Source: Tequatrovirus NIC06P2
Direction: 5' to 3' (one strand)
Sequence record: OZ035760.1
DNA length: 64,000 nt
This document shows, one piece after another, positions 17,114-55,056 of this stretch (within the stretch, counting starts at the first letter, position 1; each line of letters opens with the position of its first letter). The notes under the pieces are model-generated. The model did no database searches. It saw only the letters and a program-made list of their open reading frames with translations, and was not told where the DNA came from. Position numbers and translations under genes: made by a program.

Positions 17114-17341
17114 TTATTGTTCAATCAGTCCCATGTAAAATTCTGCGTCTTCAGAATCCATGCCATCACAATATTCATTAGCCATAAAGCGGGTGAGGTC
17201 TTCAAGAGGACCTTCAATAACGATTTGAATACTCCAATACTTAGAATCTTGCACGCTTGTGATACTAAGTTCAGGATAACGATTACGAATAATCTCTTCA
17301 ATATATTCAAAATCAACGATGTCAATATCAACTTTAGCCAT
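17114..17341 (-). CDS. hypothetical acidic protein (75 aa)
   Basis: Complete ORF downstream of the gene 32 terminator and an early promoter. Confidence 0.5.
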
Positions 17342-17415
17342 ATTATTTTTCCCCTTTAATTATCAGCAGTATTGCCGATAGTTGTATAGTACCATGGAAG
17401 GACAAGGATGTAAAC
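17342..17415 (-). promoter_or_regulatory. early promoter and leader (GTTTAC ... GGTACTATACAACTATCGGCAAT)
   Basis: GTTTAC -35 with downstream conserved leader; follows the gene 32 terminator. Confidence 0.5.
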
Positions 17416-17440
17416 CGTTTTGTGAAAAAATTTTTGAAAT

Positions 17441-17465
17441 AAAAAAGGGGACCTCTAGGGTCCCC
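17441..17465 (-). terminator. intrinsic terminator downstream of gene 32
   Basis: ggggacc-ctag-aggtcccc stem-loop followed by T6 on the minus strand directly after the gene 32 stop. Confidence 0.8.
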
Positions 17466-17487: not shown

Positions 17488-18396
17488 TTAAAGGTCATTC
17501 AAAAGGTCATCTAGGTCCGTGTCATCAGCACTAGATGAACTGCCAGAGCTTGAGCTCATAAAATCATCTTCAGTTTTTGTATTGAAGTCATCAACATTGA
17601 ATGCATCCAAATCATCAGCAACTTTATCAGCTTTCTTAGCAGCAGTTGCAGCGGCACCGCCCATCACAGCAGTTCCCATGACTTGACCGAATTTAGTGCT
17701 CAGTTCTTCAAACGATTTGAATTTATCTTTAGAAGTCATTTCAGAAAGGTCAACCATTTGTTCGAACAGTTCTTTCTGGAAAGATTCATCGTCAATGTTT
17801 GGAATCGCAGATTGATTCAGGAATTTAGATTCGTCGTAGTTACTAAATCCAGAAACCTGTTTAACTTTCAGTACAAAGTTAGCACCTTCCCACGGACAAG
17901 TTACATCAACTGGAGTTTCACCCATTTCAACATCAACCGCAATCATCGCGTTGATTTTATCCCAGATTTTCTTACCGAAGCGGTATTTAAATACTTTACC
18001 TTCGTTTTCTGGAGCAGCTGGGTCTTTTACAACAAGAATGTTAGCCCAGTAAGAAGTTTTACGTTTAACAAGACTGTACTCTTTATTGTCAGTGTTGTAC
18101 AGATCATTTTTACTGATGTATTGACATACTGGGCAAGAATCGTAATCACCGTGGGTAGATGAACATGTTTCAATATACCATTTACCATTTTTCTTGAAAC
18201 CGTGATTTACAAGAATTGCGAATGGTGCTTGTTCATCATTTTTAGACGGAAGAAAACGAATTACTGCTTGACCGTTACCCGCATTGTCGAGTTTCAGTTT
18301 CCACTCGCCTTTATCTTCAGAAGAAAAACCACCTTTATTTCCAGCCAGTTTAGCCATTTGTGCAGCGAGTTCAGCAGTAGATTTACGTTTAAACAT
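17488..18396 (-). CDS. 32: single-stranded DNA-binding protein gp32 (302 aa)
   Basis: Matches T4 gp32 including the zinc-binding region (H...[14 protein letters not shown]) and the acidic Ser/Asp-rich C-terminal tail. Confidence 0.95.
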
Positions 18397-20761: not shown

Positions 20762-23700
20762 ATGGCCGAGATTAAAAGAAAGTTCAGAGCAGAAGATGGT
20801 CTGGACGCAGGTGGCGATAAAATAATCAACGTAGCTTTAGCTGATCGTGCCGTAGGAACTGACGGTGTTAACGTTGATTACCTAATTCAAGAAAACACAG
20901 TTCAACAATACGATCCAACTCGTGGATATTTAAAAGATTTCGTAATCATTTATGATAACCGCTTTTGGGCTGCTATAAATGATATTCCAAAACCAGCAGG
21001 AGCTTTTAATAGCGGACGCTGGAGAGCATTACGTACCGATGCTAACTGGATTACGGTTTCATCTGGTTCATATCAATTAAAATCCGGTGAAGCAATTTCG
21101 GTTAATACTGCAGCTGGAAATGACATCACGTTTACTTTACCATCTTCTCCAATTGATGGTGATACTATCGTTCTCCAAGATATTGGAGGAAAACCCGGAG
21201 TTAACCAAGTTTTAATTGTAGCTCCAGTACAAAGTATTGTAAACTTTAGAGGTGAACAAGTACGTTCAGTACTAATGACTCATCCAAAGTCACAGCTAGT
21301 TTTAATTTTTAGTAATCGTCTGTGGCAAATGTATGTTGCTGATTATAGTAGAGAAGCTGTAATTGTAACACCAGCGAATACTTATCAAGCACAATCAAAC
21401 GATTTTATCGTACGTAGATTTACTTCTGCTGCACCGATTAATATTAAACTTCCAAGATTTGCTAATCATGGCGATATTATTAATTTCGTCGATTTAGATA
21501 AACTAAATCCGCTTTATCATACAATTGTTACTACATACGATGAAACGACTTCAATACAAGAAGTTGGAACTCATTCCATTGAAGGCCGTACAACGATTGA
21601 CGGTTTCTTGATGTTTGATGATAATGAGAAATTGTGGAGATTGTTTGACGGGGATAGTAAAGCGCGTTTACGCATTATAACGACTAATTCTAATATTCGT
21701 CCAAATGAAGAAGTTATGGTATTTGGTGCGAATAACGGAACAACTCAAACAATTGAGCTTAAGCTTCCAACTAATATTTCTGTTGGTGATACTGTTAAAA
21801 TTTCCATGAATTACATGAGAAAAGGACAAACAGTTAAAATCAAAGCTGCTGATGAAGATAAAATTGCTTCTTCAGTTCAATTGCTGCAATTCCCAAAACG
21901 CTCAGAATATCCGCCTGAAGCTGAGTGGGTTACAGTCCAAGAATTAGTTTTTAATGGTGAAACTAATTATGTTCCAGTTTTAGAGCTTGCTTATATAGAA
22001 GATTCTGATGGAAAATACTGGGTTGTACAGCAAAACGTTCCAACTGTAGAAAGAGTAGATTCTTTAAATGATTCTACTAGAGCAAGATTAGGCGTAATTG
22101 CTTTAGCTACACAAGCTCAAGCAAATGTCGATTTAGAAAATTCTCCACAAAAAGAATTAGCAATTACTCCAGAAACGTTAGCTAATCGCACTGCTACTGA
22201 AACTCGCAGAGGTATTGCAAGAATAGCAACTACTGCTCAAGTGAATCAGAACACCACATTCTCTTTTGCAGATGACCTTATCATTACTCCTAAAAAGCTG
22301 AATGAAAGAACTGCTACAGAAACTCGTAGAGGTGTCGCTGAAATTGCTACGCAGCAGGAAACTAATACAGGTACTGATGATACTACAATCATTACTCCTA
22401 AAAAGCTTCAAGCTCGTCAAGGTTCTGAATCATTATCTGGTATTGTAACTTTTGTATCTACTGCAGGTGCTACTCCAGCTTCTAGCCGTGAATTAAATGG
22501 TACGAATGTTTATAATAAAAACACTAATAATTTAGTTGTTTCACCTAAAGCTTTGGATCAGTATAAAGCTACGCCTACTCAACAGGGTGCAGTAATTTTA
22601 GCAGTTGAAAGTGAAGTAATTGCTGGACAAAGTCAGCAAGGATGGGCAAATGCTGTTGTAACGCCAGAAACGTTACATAAAAAGACATCAACTGATGGAA
22701 GAATTGGTTTAATTGAAATTGCTACGCAAAGTGAAGTTAATACAGGAACTGATTATACTCGTGCAGTCACTCCTAAAACTTTAAATGGTCGTAAAGCAAC
22801 TGAAAGTTTAAGTGGTATAGCTGAAATTGCTACACAAGTTGAATTCGACGCAGGCGTCGACGATACTCGTATCTCTACACCATTAAAAATTAAAACCAGA
22901 TTTAATAGTACTGATCGTACTTCTGTTGTTGCTCTATCTGGATTAGTTGAATCAGGAACTCTCTGGGACCATTATACACTTAATATTCTTGAAGCAAATG
23001 AGACACAGCGTGGTACACTTCGTGTAGCTACACAGGTTGAAGCTGCTGCAGGAAAATTAGATAATGTTTTAATAACTCCTAAAAAGCTTTTAGGTACTAA
23101 ATCTACTGAAGCACAAGAAGGTGTTATTAAAGTTGCAACTCAGTCTGAAACTGTGACTGGAACGTCAGCAAATACTGCTGTATCTCCAAAAAATTTAAAA
23201 TGGATTGTGCAGAGTGAACCTACCTGGGCAGCTACTACTGCGATAAGAGGTTTTGTTAAAACTTCATCTGGTTCAATTACGTTCGTTGGTAATGATACGG
23301 TAGGTTCAACACAGCCATTAGAATCATATGAGAAAAATAGCTATGCAATATCACCATATGAATTAAACCGTGTATTAGCAAATTATCTGCCGTTAAAAGC
23401 AAAAGCTGTAGATAGTAATTTATTGGATGGTCTAGATTCATCTCAGTTCATTCGTAGGGATATTGCACAGACGGTTAATGGTTCACTAACCTTAACCCAA
23501 CAAACGAATCTGAGTGCCCCTCTTGTATCATCTAGTACTGCTACGTTTGGTGGTTCAGTTTCGGTAAATACATTAACTATTTCTAAAACTGGAACAGCAG
23601 CTCGTCTGATTTTTGAGAAAGGACCTCAAACTGAAACTAACCCAGCGCAGACGATGACTATCAAAGTTTGGGGAAACCAGTTTAGTGGCAGACCAGATTC

Positions 23701-33437: not shown

Positions 33438-34073
33438 TCACAGTTCAGATGCTACAATGATTACAGCTTCAATGTTTTCTGCCGAGCGTTTAATGTCAAG
33501 ATACACATTACCGTTTTTAGCGATTTTACATGACATTCCGATATCAGTAAATTTCTGAATATGATGTTCCATCATTTTGTATCCAAAAATTCGCATATTT
33601 CCATTGTTGTTAATTTCAAAATTACGAATTCCGTGAGTACGTTTTTCTAAAATAGCGAGATAGTTACTACGATAAGTTTCAACCTTTTTAAGAACAAATC
33701 CATTTTCATCTAGCAGTTTTAACATGAGGTCTTTATCTTCTTCCATATCGGAAGTAATCTCGCGAGCTTTACGAGTTGCTCGTTTTTTCAGCAGTTCCGG
33801 AGCATTTTCTTGTGCATATAAAGTTGCTGCGTTTGAAATAATATCCTGAGCTTCACCAGTAATGATTAATCCATCACCAGATTTCTCCACCAGGCCTTTT
33901 TTAATCAATACCCCAATATTACTATTAACTACTGCGTTACCTAAATCTGGATGCACCTCACGAACTTCTGCAGCTGTAATGAAATCTTTCTTAGCAATAG
34001 TAATTAAAATCGCAGCAGTTTTTTCATTCAGAACATCGTTAGAAGCTTTGATGATGTAAGTTACTTTAGACAT
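33438..34073 (-). CDS. motA: MotA middle-transcription activator (211 aa)
   Basis: Matches T4 MotA length and sequence. Confidence 0.9.
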   Translation of the reverse strand: MSKVTYIIKASNDVLNEKTAAILITIAKKDFITAAEVREVHPDLGNAVVNSNIGVLIKKGLVEKSGDGLIITGEAQDIISNAATLYAQENAPELLKKRATRKAREITSDMEEDKDLMLKLLDENGFVLKKVETYRSNYLAILEKRTHGIRNFEINNNGNMRIFGYKMMEHHIQKFTDIGMSCKIAKNGNVYLDIKRSAENIEAVIIVASEL

Positions 34074-34144
34074 TTTCTAATCTCCGTAATTCTGTATCAG
34101 TAGTTGATAGTTGTATAGTACCACAGTATGCTTTGGTTGTAAAC
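34074..34144 (-). promoter_or_regulatory. early promoter and leader upstream of motA
   Basis: GTTTAC -35 with GGTACTATACAACTATCAACTAC leader; near-duplicate of the cassette at 17342-17415. Confidence 0.5.
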
Positions 34145-34168
34145 CGTTTTGTGAAAAAAATTTAAAAT

Positions 34169-34194
34169 AAAAAAGGGAGAGCCTCGGCTCTCCC
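34169..34194 (-). terminator. intrinsic terminator
   Basis: gggagagcc/ggctctccc stem followed by T-run on the minus strand. Confidence 0.7.
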
Positions 34195-34199
34195 TAAAA

Positions 34200-34349
34200 T
34201 TACTGCATGACTGTGATAACTGTCATGATAACACGTTGAATTCCGAACGCAAGAAGACCTCCTGCTACGGCTGGAACAACACCTAAACCCGCCAGTAAAA
34301 TGCTACCGGATACTAATGCAGCGCTTGTAATACCAATGAATGGACTCAT
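34200..34349 (-). CDS. small hydrophobic peptide (49 aa; motA.1 position)
   Basis: ATG overlaps the gene 52 stop (ATGA); predicted TM peptide MSPFIGITSAALVSGSILLAGLGVVPAVAGGLLAFGIQ... Confidence 0.4.
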   Translation of the reverse strand: MSPFIGITSAALVSGSILLAGLGVVPAVAGGLLAFGIQRVIMTVITVMQ

Positions 34350-37235: not shown

Positions 37236-37293
37236 TTTCTGTTCCTCCGTAGTTGATAGGGTAATAATACCACAGAGGAACAGTCTTGTAAAC
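37236..37293 (-). promoter_or_regulatory. early promoter and leader (GTTTAC...GGTATTATTACCCTATCAACTACGGAGGAAC)
   Basis: Conserved cassette shared with 16651-16705 and 37743-37799. Confidence 0.5.
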
Positions 37294-37742: not shown

Positions 37743-37799
37743 TTTTGTTCCTCCGTAGTTGATAGGGTAATAGTACCACGGTCCTTGTGGTATGTAAAC
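37743..37799 (-). promoter_or_regulatory. early promoter and leader (GTTTAC...GGTACTATTACCCTATCAACTACGGAGGAAC)
   Basis: GTTTAC -35, 17-nt spacer, conserved leader with GGAGG Shine-Dalgarno. Confidence 0.55.
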
Positions 37800-38373: not shown

Positions 38374-38441
38374 TTAAACTTTCCTTTATGTCGGAATCAC
38401 TGATATTCATATAATAAATCATAATTTCTCTTAAAACAAAA

Positions 38442-38453
38442 GGGCCGAAGCCC
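38442..38453 (-). terminator. hairpin gggc-cgaa-gccc with flanking U-run (after denB.1-position ORF)
   Basis: Stem-loop followed by TTTTGTTTT on the minus strand; identical hairpin recurs at 38670-38681. Confidence 0.55.
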
Positions 38454-38458
38454 TTATT

Positions 38459-38653
38459 TTATTTGAATTGTGCAATTCTTTTCTCTAGACATTCAGCATA
38501 AGATTTCATTGAGATGAACTGTGAAAGTAACAGTTCTTGCTCAACTGCGTTAACTGTTAGAAACTTTGTGCTTTCTAAAAATTTGCTCAGTGCATTAATT
38601 TTGAGCATTAATTGATCGTATTCTTCTTTTACTCGTGCTTGATAACCTAACAT
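38459..38653 (-). CDS. hypothetical protein (64 aa; denB.1 position)
   Basis: Complete ORF bracketed by two identical hairpins. Confidence 0.5.
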   Translation of the reverse strand: MLGYQARVKEEYDQLMLKINALSKFLESTKFLTVNAVEQELLLSQFISMKSYAECLEKRIAQFK

Positions 38654-38669
38654 AATTTTCCTTAGTTAA

Positions 38670-38681
38670 GGGCCGAAGCCC
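38670..38681 (-). other. hairpin gggc-cgaa-gccc at the rIIB stop (second copy)
   Basis: Same 12-nt hairpin with matching flanks (aagggccgaagcccttattt); no U-run on the minus strand. Confidence 0.45.
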
Positions 38682-39620
38682 TTATTTAAATTGTTCAGTA
38701 ACGTCTTCAACTACTTCGTATTGGCAGGTACGCATTTTAGCATCGTTGTAATCAATCGGAATTGATACTACATCACGCGGATGTACTTTAACTTTTACAA
38801 CTCGGCTGGTTGAACTGCCAAAGTGACGAATATAAGATTTAGAACACACATGCAGACCACGAGAACAAGTTTGTGTATCATCGTCATTCACACGAGTACG
38901 TGGCATTTTAACTACTTTACCCGGACTGTTATCAAAGGTGTTTGAGTGACAGTCAAAGTAGTTGTCACGAACTACTTTCCAAGCATAGAAGTAACCATCT
39001 TCGGTGATTTCAATATCGTTTGCTACCAAGAAATCAAAGAGTCGAGATACCGCTTTTTGGCTTGGGTTTTCCAACAGATTTTCCAGGAACGGAAAATAAA
39101 ATTCAAAGTTTTCACCTTTTTCCATCGAGTCAAGAATACGATCAATTAAACCAGACCGCAATTCAATATTTTGATAGAACAAGCTTCCACCTTCAATTCG
39201 AACATCACCGGAAATATATTTTTCAACAGCGCGACGAACGTTAATTTTTTGCGCAGCTTCTTCCAGCTTATCCGCTACAAGCAGATTAAGAATTTCCTGG
39301 AAGTTTGAATGAGTATTAGGAGTTGCGTTATAAGTTACACCGTCAACAGTAATTGAAATGAATTTTTTAGATGCATTCCAAATAATGTCAGATTTAGCAA
39401 CCGGAGCAATAACTGCATCGCTATTAACTTTAACTGTAATATCACCGCTAATAGTAACTTTAGGGCGTTTAGCTTCTTCAGCATTTTTCAAAACACGACG
39501 GATTGTGTCAACCGATACACCTTGCCAATCAGCCAATTCCTGTTGGGTGTAATTACCACTTGAGTACAGCTTAACAATTTCAGCTTGTTCGTTTTTGGTC
39601 AGGCATTTAATATTGTACAT
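38682..39620 (-). CDS. rIIB: rIIB (312 aa)
   Basis: Matches T4 rIIB length and sequence; adjacent to rIIA. Confidence 0.95.
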   Translation of the reverse strand: MYNIKCLTKNEQAEIVKLYSSGNYTQQELADWQGVSVDTIRRVLKNAEEAKRPKVTISGDITVKVNSDAVIAPVAKSDIIWNASKKFISITVDGVTYNATPNTHSNFQEILNLLVADKLEEAAQKINVRRAVEKYISGDVRIEGGSLFYQNIELRSGLIDRILDSMEKGENFEFYFPFLENLLENPSQKAVSRLFDFLVANDIEITEDGYFYAWKVVRDNYFDCHSNTFDNSPGKVVKMPRTRVNDDDTQTCSRGLHVCSKSYIRHFGSSTSRVVKVKVHPRDVVSIPIDYNDAKMRTCQYEVVEDVTEQFK

Positions 39621-45437: not shown

Positions 45438-45719
45438 TTAATTGAACAGTGGAGCGATGCGTTTCAGAAGAGTAGCAGCACCTTTAGCGAATTTTACATC
45501 ATGAAAAACAGTTTCTTCTTCCGTTACAACACGAGCTTTAATGTTTTCACAATCCCAATTTTTGCGAACAATCTTCAAAAGCTGCAGTAAATCTTTACAT
45601 TCAGCAATATCGATAACACATCCACGAGAATCTTCCATTATAGCACGATAACCGTAAGCCATACCATAATCGTTGAAAGATTGCTCGATGATAATTAAGT
45701 TTTCCATTTTATTCTCCAA
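45438..45719 (-). CDS. hypothetical protein (93 aa)
   Basis: Complete ORF. Confidence 0.5.
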   Translation of the reverse strand: MENKMENLIIIEQSFNDYGMAYGYRAIMEDSRGCVIDIAECKDLLQLLKIVRKNWDCENIKARVVTEEETVFHDVKFAKGAATLLKRIAPLFN

Positions 45720-45803
45720 GTTGTTTTCTGTATCAGTAGTTGATATTGATATAGTACCATAATCAACTACTGATGTATATAGTTTTATGAAAAAATTTAA
45801 ACT

Positions 45804-46295
45804 TTATGCATAGCGAGCTTTGCTGTAGTGTTTAATCCAACTTTCAGGAATGACTTTGTATGTTCCTAAAAATACCACATTGTACAGCTTAACACCATCT
45901 TCTACCCATTGATCAGTAATGTATGCACACATAGCGCGAGTACGCTGAGGAAGTGGTTGTCCACCTTCGGTAAATTCAAACTCATAAGGAGCAATGAACT
46001 TGATAGCTTGACCAAGTTTCCACTTAAAGTCTACACCTACATGTGAAGTATCAATCGTTTCAATTCCTTTAGCAGGAACAGCTTTCAAAAACGCAGATTC
46101 AAGAAATTTCGCGCGAACATAACCAAACTGAGGTTTAGACTTTCCATCTTTAGGAATGATACGCACTTTTACTTCAGAATCTTCATCTTTAACGCCGTGT
46201 TTAAGCTGAATGCTTACAATTTCGACCAATTTTCCTGCTGCTTTAGAACGGGATTTATCAGATACACGAGCAATTTCACCAATATTAATAATCAT
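45804..46295 (-). CDS. motB: MotB (163 aa)
   Basis: Matches T4 MotB size and sequence. Confidence 0.8.
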   Translation of the reverse strand: MIINIGEIARVSDKSRSKAAGKLVEIVSIQLKHGVKDEDSEVKVRIIPKDGKSKPQFGYVRAKFLESAFLKAVPAKGIETIDTSHVGVDFKWKLGQAIKFIAPYEFEFTEGGQPLPQRTRAMCAYITDQWVEDGVKLYNVVFLGTYKVIPESWIKHYSKARYA

Positions 46296-54778: not shown

Positions 54779-54785
54779 ATTTAAA

Positions 54786-54809
54786 TGAAAAAAGGACTCC
54801 CGAAGGAGT
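54786..54809 (-). terminator. intrinsic terminator downstream of soc (same hairpin as at 1203-1226)
   Basis: ggactcc-cgaa-ggagtcc followed by T-run on the minus strand. Confidence 0.75.
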
Positions 54810-54819
54810 CCTTGAATTA

Positions 54820-55056
54820 TTAACCACCTATTTCTGTTGGCGTAAACATTGCAGCATTCTTAGTTTTCCAGTCAGCTGCATCAGAAACTACAGTAGAATA
54901 TGCTGCCTTTTCAGAAGGAAAGGTCTGATAATGAGAATCTGCAATACGATGCTCGTTAGAATAGATTTCAAACGGAACAGAAACTTCCATACCTTTAACT
55001 TCTTTGCCTTCACCTGCTGGATGAGTAAAGGTCTTGATGTTAACGAAACCGCCCAT
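54820..55056 (-). CDS. soc: small outer capsid protein Soc (78 aa)
   Basis: Conserved Soc motifs (YVNIKTF..., HYQTFPSEKAAYSTV) and late promoter upstream. Confidence 0.9.
   Translation of the reverse strand: MGGFVNIKTFTHPAGEGKEVKGMEVSVPFEIYSNEHRIADSHYQTFPSEKAAYSTVVSDAADWKTKNAAMFTPTEIGG

Follow-up and report, generated by a model that had tools for sequence, protein, structure and literature searches.

The gap behind gene 32 of Tequatrovirus NIC06P2 (sequence record OZ035760.1) contains a hairpin and a promoter of which a similar version occurs a second time in the same genome, and the question arises what kind of element the two represent and how they came to be so alike. A preliminary description had taken the pair for a duplicated terminator-promoter cassette with a functional RNA structure. 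The stretch of DNA analyzed here, called the window in the following, is 64,000 nucleotides long, belongs to a Tequatrovirus and is ~98% identical to many T4-like coliphage genomes. All genes around the two segments lie on the minus strand. Cassette A occupies the gap between gene 32 and frd.3, whereas cassette B, which had been placed downstream of gene 52 in the same way as A downstream of gene 32, is located in the gap between motA.1 and motA. Thus, the placement is correct for gene 32 but holds only loosely for gene 52, which lies just before motA.1, so that motA.1 intervenes and the gene downstream of B is motA. The start codon of motA.1 overlaps the gene 52 stop codon (ATGA, 34346-34349), which suggests that this small membrane or periplasmic ORF may be translationally coupled to the topoisomerase subunit gp52. 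The coordinates of all features are compiled in Table 1.

Consensus scans yielded exactly one strong terminator and one TG-extended promoter for each of the two intergenic regions. Together with the folding analysis they bear out the preliminary reading, in which a hairpin resembling an intrinsic terminator, with its T-run, precedes an early promoter (sigma-70, extended -10) and its leader in each segment, and independent annotators have marked a terminator and an early promoter at the orthologous gene-32 site of phage ASO78A as well. The hairpin of A has a stem of 7 bp (6 GC) with a 5-nt loop, stands 32 nt upstream of the -35 hexamer and barely beats shuffled sequences in its 56-nt context (z = -1.8, with 12 of 200 shuffles as good), and that of B has a stem of 8-9 bp (6 GC in the 9-bp form) with a 4- or 2-nt loop and stands 30 nt upstream of the -35 hexamer. 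Judged from the sequence and from homology to T4, transcription would be expected to terminate and to initiate again at both sites in this phage, and the spacing would put the +1 of A near 17379. The frd.3 leader can form a hairpin next to this predicted start (17361-17380, minus strand; 8 bp, -9.2 kcal/mol, z = -3.0), in which a G-to-A change disrupts one pair in T4 and in the IMG/VR locus L004; a comparable structure is absent from the motA leader. The motA gene belongs to the early genes, and RegB cleaves its mRNA within the Shine-Dalgarno sequence (Hinton review, PMC2988021).

Table 1. Positions of cassettes A and B, their flanking genes, a third family member and the spacer alleles of site A.
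Feature	Position	Strand	Evidence or occurrence
Gene 32 (ssDNA-binding protein) ORF, upstream of cassette A	17488..18396	-	98% matches annotated gp32
Gene 32 stop codon	17488..17490	-	ORF 17488..18396
A terminator hairpin GGGGACC-CTAGA-GGTCCCC	17447..17465	-	terminator scan; fold -14.3 kcal/mol; annotated rho-independent terminator in phage ASO78A
A T-run TTTTTTATTT, U-tract of terminator	17437..17446	-	sequence, terminator scan
A UP-element-like block AAAAATTTTTTCACAAA	17419..17435	-	14/15 specified UP consensus positions
A -35 hexamer TTTACA, G before	17409..17414	-	promoter scan
A 17-nt spacer TCCTTGTCCTTCCATGG, including TG of extended -10; allele 1	17392..17408	-	comparison with relatives
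A -10 hexamer TACTAT	17386..17391	-	promoter scan
A start-site region ACAACTATC, leader and Shine-Dalgarno (17351-17357)	17342..17385	-	sequence
frd.3 start codon, gene downstream of cassette A	17339..17341	-	ORF 17114..17341; T4 frd.3 annotation
motA.1, 49-aa ORF overlapping gene 52 end	34200-34349	-	T2 annotation
motA.1 stop codon, gene upstream of cassette B	34200..34202	-	ORF list; T2 annotation
B terminator hairpin AGGGAGAGC-CGAG-GCTCTCCCT	34174..34195	-	terminator scan; fold -19.0 kcal/mol, z = -4.6 vs shuffles
B T-run TTTTTATTTT	34164..34173	-	sequence, terminator scan
B UP-element-like block TAAATTTTTTTCACAAA	34148..34164	-	13/15 UP consensus positions
B -35 hexamer TTTACA, G before	34138..34143	-	promoter scan
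B spacer ACCAAAGCATACTGTGG, same in all relatives sampled	34121..34137	-	comparison with relatives
B -10 hexamer TACTAT	34115..34120	-	promoter scan
B start-site region ACAACTATC, leader ATCAACTACTGATACAGAA and Shine-Dalgarno with GGAG (34081-34087)	34074..34114	-	sequence
motA start codon	34071..34073	-	ORF 33438..34073; annotations of relatives
Third, weaker family member	45742-45816	-	61% in repeat search; -35 TATACA; no upstream terminator hairpin; leader as B
Spacer allele 1, TCCTTGTCCTTCCA	site A		this window, ASO78A, L004
Spacer allele 2, AGCATAAAGCTTTA	site A		T4; close variants in ECO4, UFV13
Spacer allele 3, ACCAAAGCATACTG	site A		Lv5cm; close variant in Pu-Krd-SF7

The sequence strings on which the preliminary description had based the similarity of the two segments are all present: gatagttgtatagtacca occurs at 17377-17394 and 34106-34123, gtaaaccgttttgtgaaaaaa at 17410-17430 and 34139-34159, and aaataaaaaaggg followed by a GC hairpin is found in A and in B. 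A repeat search of the window returned the two as an ungapped direct repeat of 75 nt (17377-17451 vs 34106-34180) with 59 identical positions (79%), and the gapped alignment introduces a single 1-nt indel, which is located in the A/T block. With a base-composition null only ~1e-7 to 1e-10 pairs this alike would be expected by chance in the window, but this null was judged wrong and was replaced by a comparison within the promoter family. Here, we used the 16 minus-strand early-type promoters of the form GTTTAC[A/T]-N17-TAnnAT that occur in the 64 kb, including one at 45779 that was admitted with a degenerate -35 (TATACA), which gives 120 pairs in a 72-nt register. A and B are the most similar of all these pairs, with 76% identity over the 72 nt where the mean is 48% (sd 7.5, z = 3.7), so that the likeness does exceed what is expected for early promoters. 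Identity between A and B amounts to 81% in the UP block (family mean 41%), 100% in the TG/-10 block (76%) and 82% in the start-site (+1) block (42%), whereas identity in the spacer (36% vs 31%) and in the leader (26% vs 34%) does not rise above the background level of the 16 promoters. Since the excess is found only in the UP, TG/-10 and +1 blocks, the two copies resemble near-consensus members of a promoter family and not the products of a fresh duplication. Their UP blocks are the best or near-best among the 16 promoters, whereby scores of at least 14 are reached by 5e-5 and scores of at least 13 by 2.7e-4 of the 17-mers of the window. UP scoring was carried out with the E. coli consensus, which is said to go back to Estrem et al. 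in 1998. Overall, the term "duplicated" is justified in part; A and B do not represent a private duplication but belong to a dispersed, multi-copy family of T4 early promoters or PeSLs (promoter-early stem-loops).

Other members of this family are present in the window. The repeat search also assigned copy B to a six-member family of ~74 nt. The third, weaker member listed in Table 1 lies in a region (45706-45816, minus strand) upstream of a 93-aa ORF and has a leader, ATCAACTACTGATACAGAAAA, in common with motA and with a T4 promoter near 69.6 kb. An upstream GC hairpin with a T-run was detected at 4 of the 16 promoters, namely those at 1177, 17414, 34143 and 54776. Near-identical UUCG-loop terminators, GGACTCC-TTCG-GGAGTCC, are located at 1198-1235 and 54783-54820 (87% over 38 nt); an early promoter comes after both of them, with the hairpin 29 and 15 nt before the -35, respectively, and these are two further terminator-promoter cassettes of the A/B kind. 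In seven of the 16 early promoters (-35 at 1177, 4238, 16704, 20715, 37292, 45779, and 46368, minus strand) the -10 hexamer is bracketed by a perfect inverted repeat of at least 6 bp, with one arm in the spacer and the other within the 30 nt that follow the -10, for example CTGTTCCTC/GAGGAACAG at 37292 and TCAGTAGTTGAT/ATCAACTACTGA at 45779; ~1.5 such cases would be expected, and 1000 shuffles gave at most 6. At 1177 and 37292 the Shine-Dalgarno sequence falls within the downstream arm, and read-through transcripts of these two would mask the ribosome site while promoter-initiated ones would not. This arrangement presumably resembles the control style of T4 e/49/soc, and the bracketing repeats fit the PeSL subclass in which the stem-loop overlaps the -10 (PMC2839356). 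A family of three hairpins with conserved flanks (318-355, 38427-38464, and 38655-38692) reads GGGGCC-GAAG-CCCC on the plus strand and corresponds to a C(UUCG)G tetraloop on the minus strand; these are probably further terminators or RNA-stabilising hairpins. A different type of repetition was seen at 22166-23088, where coding motifs of 28-35 nt (ACTCCTAAAAAGCT...) recur every ~108-120 nt or multiples thereof, and which, being by position in the long-tail-fibre gene region, may represent repeated structural units.

With regard to the terminators, the preliminary description had interpreted the differing stems of A and B as compensatory change and thus as a hint for a functional RNA structure. 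This interpretation is not supported in that form, as the two hairpins are different terminators, unlike in length and sequence, and a comparison of two sequences has no power for a covariation test. The cassette at nrdC.10 combines the same promoter core with a third hairpin (GGGAGCC-TTCG-GGCTCCC), and a fourth one is that described above for the cassettes at 1177 and 54776. The occurrence of different hairpins with the same promoter core argues that terminators and promoters reassort. As in other intrinsic terminators, a G+C-rich stem, a short loop and a T-run are found 5-25 nt after the stop codon. UUCG-tetraloop terminator hairpins are common in T4, and at the gene-32 site UUCG is the loop in most other genera, whereas the Tequatrovirus loops are CUAGA/UCUAG in A and CGAG/CUCG in B. 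No covariation was observed within Tequatrovirus, where the stems are invariant at both sites in all Tequatrovirus and IMG/VR copies sampled. Only the loops vary within the genus, by reverse-complement flips between CTAGA and TCTAG in A and between CGAG and CTCG in B, where TTCG and CTTG also occur. These flips constitute small hairpin-loop inversions with identical stems, as seen when 17447-17465 and 34174-34195 are compared to the IMG/VR loci L015, L016, L006, L007, and L008.

In the covariance analysis across T4-like genomes that had been suggested, real compensatory variation showed up only among the gene-32 terminators of different genera. We compared this site in Tequatro-, Mosig-, Karam-, Jiaoda-, Gapriver-, Krisch-, Slopek-, and Tulanevirus as well as in an unclassified Klebsiella phage. 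In all nine genera a GC hairpin is located ~5-25 nt after the gene 32 stop codon, with differing stem sequences and mostly a UUCG loop; it is followed by a T-run in eight of them (absent in Slopekvirus), and an early-type promoter comes next in most of the nine. In a loop-anchored alignment of 11 genomes from these genera, 7 of 9 stem pairs are changed on both sides and 88% of the cells are paired, a figure that is partly circular because the sequences were trimmed around their own predicted hairpin, while the non-circular part of the result is that a hairpin is present at that position in every genome sampled. None of 500 shuffles reached the observed covariation score. What the cross-genus covariation reflects is a predicted terminator hairpin that is conserved, and not a new structured RNA. 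A stem-loop and an early-type promoter also stand ahead of the motA gene in six further genera, and the upstream block of motA in Mosigvirus, TTTTTTTCTCACAAAACAGTTTAC, is clearly related to A and B. No relative that lacks one of the cassettes but retains the flanking genes was seen among the genomes compared.

In order to follow the promoters themselves, the orthologous sites of T4, T2, UFV13, ECO4, Lv5cm, Pu-Krd-SF7, ASO78A, and IMG/VR contigs were compared. The motA promoter turned out to be essentially invariant among the relatives sampled, and the gene-32/frd.3 site was found to carry three discrete 14-nt spacer alleles within a 54-nt core that is constant apart from them. Allele 3 corresponds to the motA spacer, and sites A and B of Lv5cm are identical at 53 of the 54 core positions. 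Allele 2 is that of the T4 promoter between nrdC.11 and nrdC.10 (54/54), a region for which the depositors of the T4 record U76612 annotated a "terminator," a "-35," and a "-10, early promoter 54.4." Allele 1 agrees with the T4 promoter near 69.6 kb at 52 of 54 positions; its spacer was found at only two loci in IMG/VR, and a search of the window with up to 3 mismatches revealed it nowhere except at site A. Among ~545 records, ~305 are allele-1-like and ~57 allele-3-like, as assigned by BLAST identity bands and not by genome-by-genome inspection. Altogether, at least four loci have the 54-nt promoter core in common and exchange sequence.

The mosaic composition extends beyond the spacer. The B leader ATCAACTACTGATACAGAA is found again at 45779 and, in T4, at the 69.6-kb locus, and in some contigs the promoter orthologous to that at 37798 of the window has UP and +1 blocks of the A/B type. 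In one IMG/VR locus (L008; IMGVR_UViG_3300045988_128797, 1276-1699) cassette B and motA are separated by an inserted 345-bp module, which comprises a 75-aa ORF together with a stem-loop and an early promoter. A 22-nt stretch of the leader, TATCAAATAAATGAACTGAAAC, borders the module on both sides as a direct repeat, and the locus represents a textbook PeSL-type insertion. Taken together, the sharing of alleles, the mosaics of leader, UP and +1 blocks and the L008 module indicate recombination or gene conversion among the dispersed cassettes, which from the pattern of the sequences would be ectopic and, in the case of recombination, homologous. It might be that ectopic gene conversion has repeatedly acted on the gene 32/frd.3 promoter, with alleles copied from motA, nrdC.10 and the ~69.6-kb T4 locus while the motA copy is fixed, a proposal to which we give an even chance. 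It could also be that the allele sharing between loci reflects in part retained ancestral duplicates instead of recent conversion.

The similarity of A and B could in principle have arisen in other ways. One is pure convergence, whereby any strong T4 early promoter behind a terminator would come to look alike, with no shared ancestry and no exchange. This would agree well with the restriction of the excess identity to the polymerase-contact blocks, with spacer and leader at background, and with the fact that both UP blocks are near the generic consensus; T-runs of the TTTTTTATTT type also follow unrelated terminators, e.g., at 1177. However, positions outside any consensus are identical too (CA...C...ACGG beside the -35), and the exact 14-nt spacer of motA or nrdC.10 is present at site A of other genomes (53-54/54), although no known selection on the spacer sequence requires such an identity. 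Convergence as the sole cause is thus unlikely in our view. The opposite assumption, a recent private duplication of a ~80-bp cassette in this genome, is suggested by the rank of the 75-nt, 79% repeat as the best promoter pair in the window, but it is extremely unlikely given that both sites are found at the same places in ~500 Tequatrovirus genomes, in Mosigvirus and in others, that the terminator hairpins differ and the spacers are unrelated in this genome, and that the family has more than two members.

Two further possibilities concern the nature of the elements. A and B might be a dedicated structured RNA, i.e., an sRNA, an attenuator or a protein-binding operator, and not plain terminators. 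The conserved flanks, however, are promoter DNA (UP, -35, and -10), the stems vary freely across genera, and the loops are reverse-complemented in relatives without any other change, which argues that the loop sequence is not specifically read. Rfam gave no match at the gathering threshold over the whole window, and a search with both segments at E ≤ 1 produced best local scores of 13-22 bits against thresholds of 37-279, with terminator-like hits to unrelated sRNA models, so that a known structured RNA family was rejected. What speaks for such an RNA is that the hairpins are stable and conserved in position and that the gene 32 mRNA, the most stable T4 message, is heavily processed (PMC3014915), which makes a role as 3' stabiliser plausible and with which a 3' terminator hairpin would fit; on balance we rate it as very improbable. 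A miniature mobile element of the MITE- or REP-like type, transposing with its own terminator and promoter, would explain multiple intergenic copies of ~100 bp and insertions such as that in L008, but terminal inverted repeats and target-site duplications are absent, the copies are mosaics in which UP, spacer, +1 and leader blocks reassort independently, and the 22-nt repeat on either side of the L008 module comes from the leader itself, as homologous recombination predicts. Transposition of this kind is therefore exceedingly improbable.

Overall, it is very probable that A and B are terminator-plus-early-promoter cassettes that belong to the dispersed T4 early-promoter/PeSL family and exchange sequence with other members. 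According to this model, a G+C-rich hairpin with its U-tract would end the upstream unit, which is gene 32 in the one case and gene 52-motA.1 in the other, and at a distance of ~30 nt a very strong "early" promoter of the host sigma-70 type would restart transcription for frd.3 or motA. This promoter is composed of an UP element close to consensus, followed by GTTTACA, the 17-nt spacer, TGg-TACTAT and the conserved start region ACAACTATC, and the cassettes would swap sequence by ectopic homologous recombination or gene conversion. The unusual likeness of A and B would then be due to both being near-consensus in every block contacted by RNA polymerase, in combination with the exchange of sequence.

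Elements of this kind are already known, and A and B are also known individually through their T4 orthologues. Mapping of the gene 32 terminator and of the early promoter of motA in T4 reportedly dates from the 1980s-90s, with Krisch and Allet (in 1982), Belin et al. (in 1987) and Uzan et al. (in 1990) being named for this work, and T4 early promoters are said to have been listed by Miller et al. in 2003 and by Wilkens and Rueger in 1994. Our literature search found no T4 TSS or Term-seq data for the A and B sites. T4 early promoters are of the UP/-35/TGn/-10 type with extra conserved positions (Hinton, 2010; PMC2988021), and A and B show the same GTTTAC -35, 17-nt spacer, TG-extended -10, UP block, and conserved +1 positions. 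They are the orthologues of the T4 frd.3 and motA promoters, whereby the frd.3 spacer allele differs from that of T4.

The PeSLs were defined by Krisch's group, together with assays of promoter and terminator activity and with evidence for recombination (Arbiol et al., 2010; PMC2839356). For the PeSLs of phi1 and RB49, promoter and terminator activity was demonstrated in vivo by lacZ fusions and mini-circles were detected by inverse PCR (PMC2839356). A and B are intergenic in a T4-like phage, extend between the stop codon upstream and the Shine-Dalgarno/ATG downstream, and share a ~30 nt A/T-rich stretch with the UP matches given above. Both read TTTACA-N17-TACTAT with TG before the -10 and have a stable stem-loop just upstream of the promoter, which fits the PST/T4 PeSL consensus TTTACW-N17-TAYWAT with its stem-loop in the same place (Comeau et al., 2014; PMC4122927). 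Furthermore, they occur in multiple copies, as a 144-nt query of A hits ~5 places per Tequatrovirus genome in BLAST searches, and the site-A spacer alleles and L008 point to recombination between copies and to module insertion. Published PeSL work stresses hyperplastic regions and ORFans, whereas A and B flank the core genes 32 and motA and are in this respect conserved cases and not the typical "mobile" ones; frd.3 and motA.1 are small uncharacterized ORFs, and the A and B sites are positionally conserved across genera. Arbiol et al. (2010; PMC2839356) compared the PeSLs with the "morons" of phages and with integron cassettes, which are likewise self-contained units with their own promoter and terminator. 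In contrast to these, the regulatory sequence itself would be the recombination substrate here, and there is neither an integrase nor an attC-like site.

What is modestly new is the three-allele spacer polymorphism at the gene-32 site, with each allele matching another promoter. For annotation this means that both gaps should be labeled as "intrinsic terminator + T4 early promoter (PeSL-type)" and that no new RNA element needs to be introduced. The alleles of site A are a clean example from nature of what the PeSL recombination model describes, here at the site of a core gene. If the gene 32/frd.3 promoter does receive its alleles by ectopic conversion, dispersed T4 early promoters, those at core genes included, would evolve in concert via short conversion tracts, and the spacer swaps would constitute a natural series on the effect of the spacer on early promoter strength or on the response to Alt/ModA.
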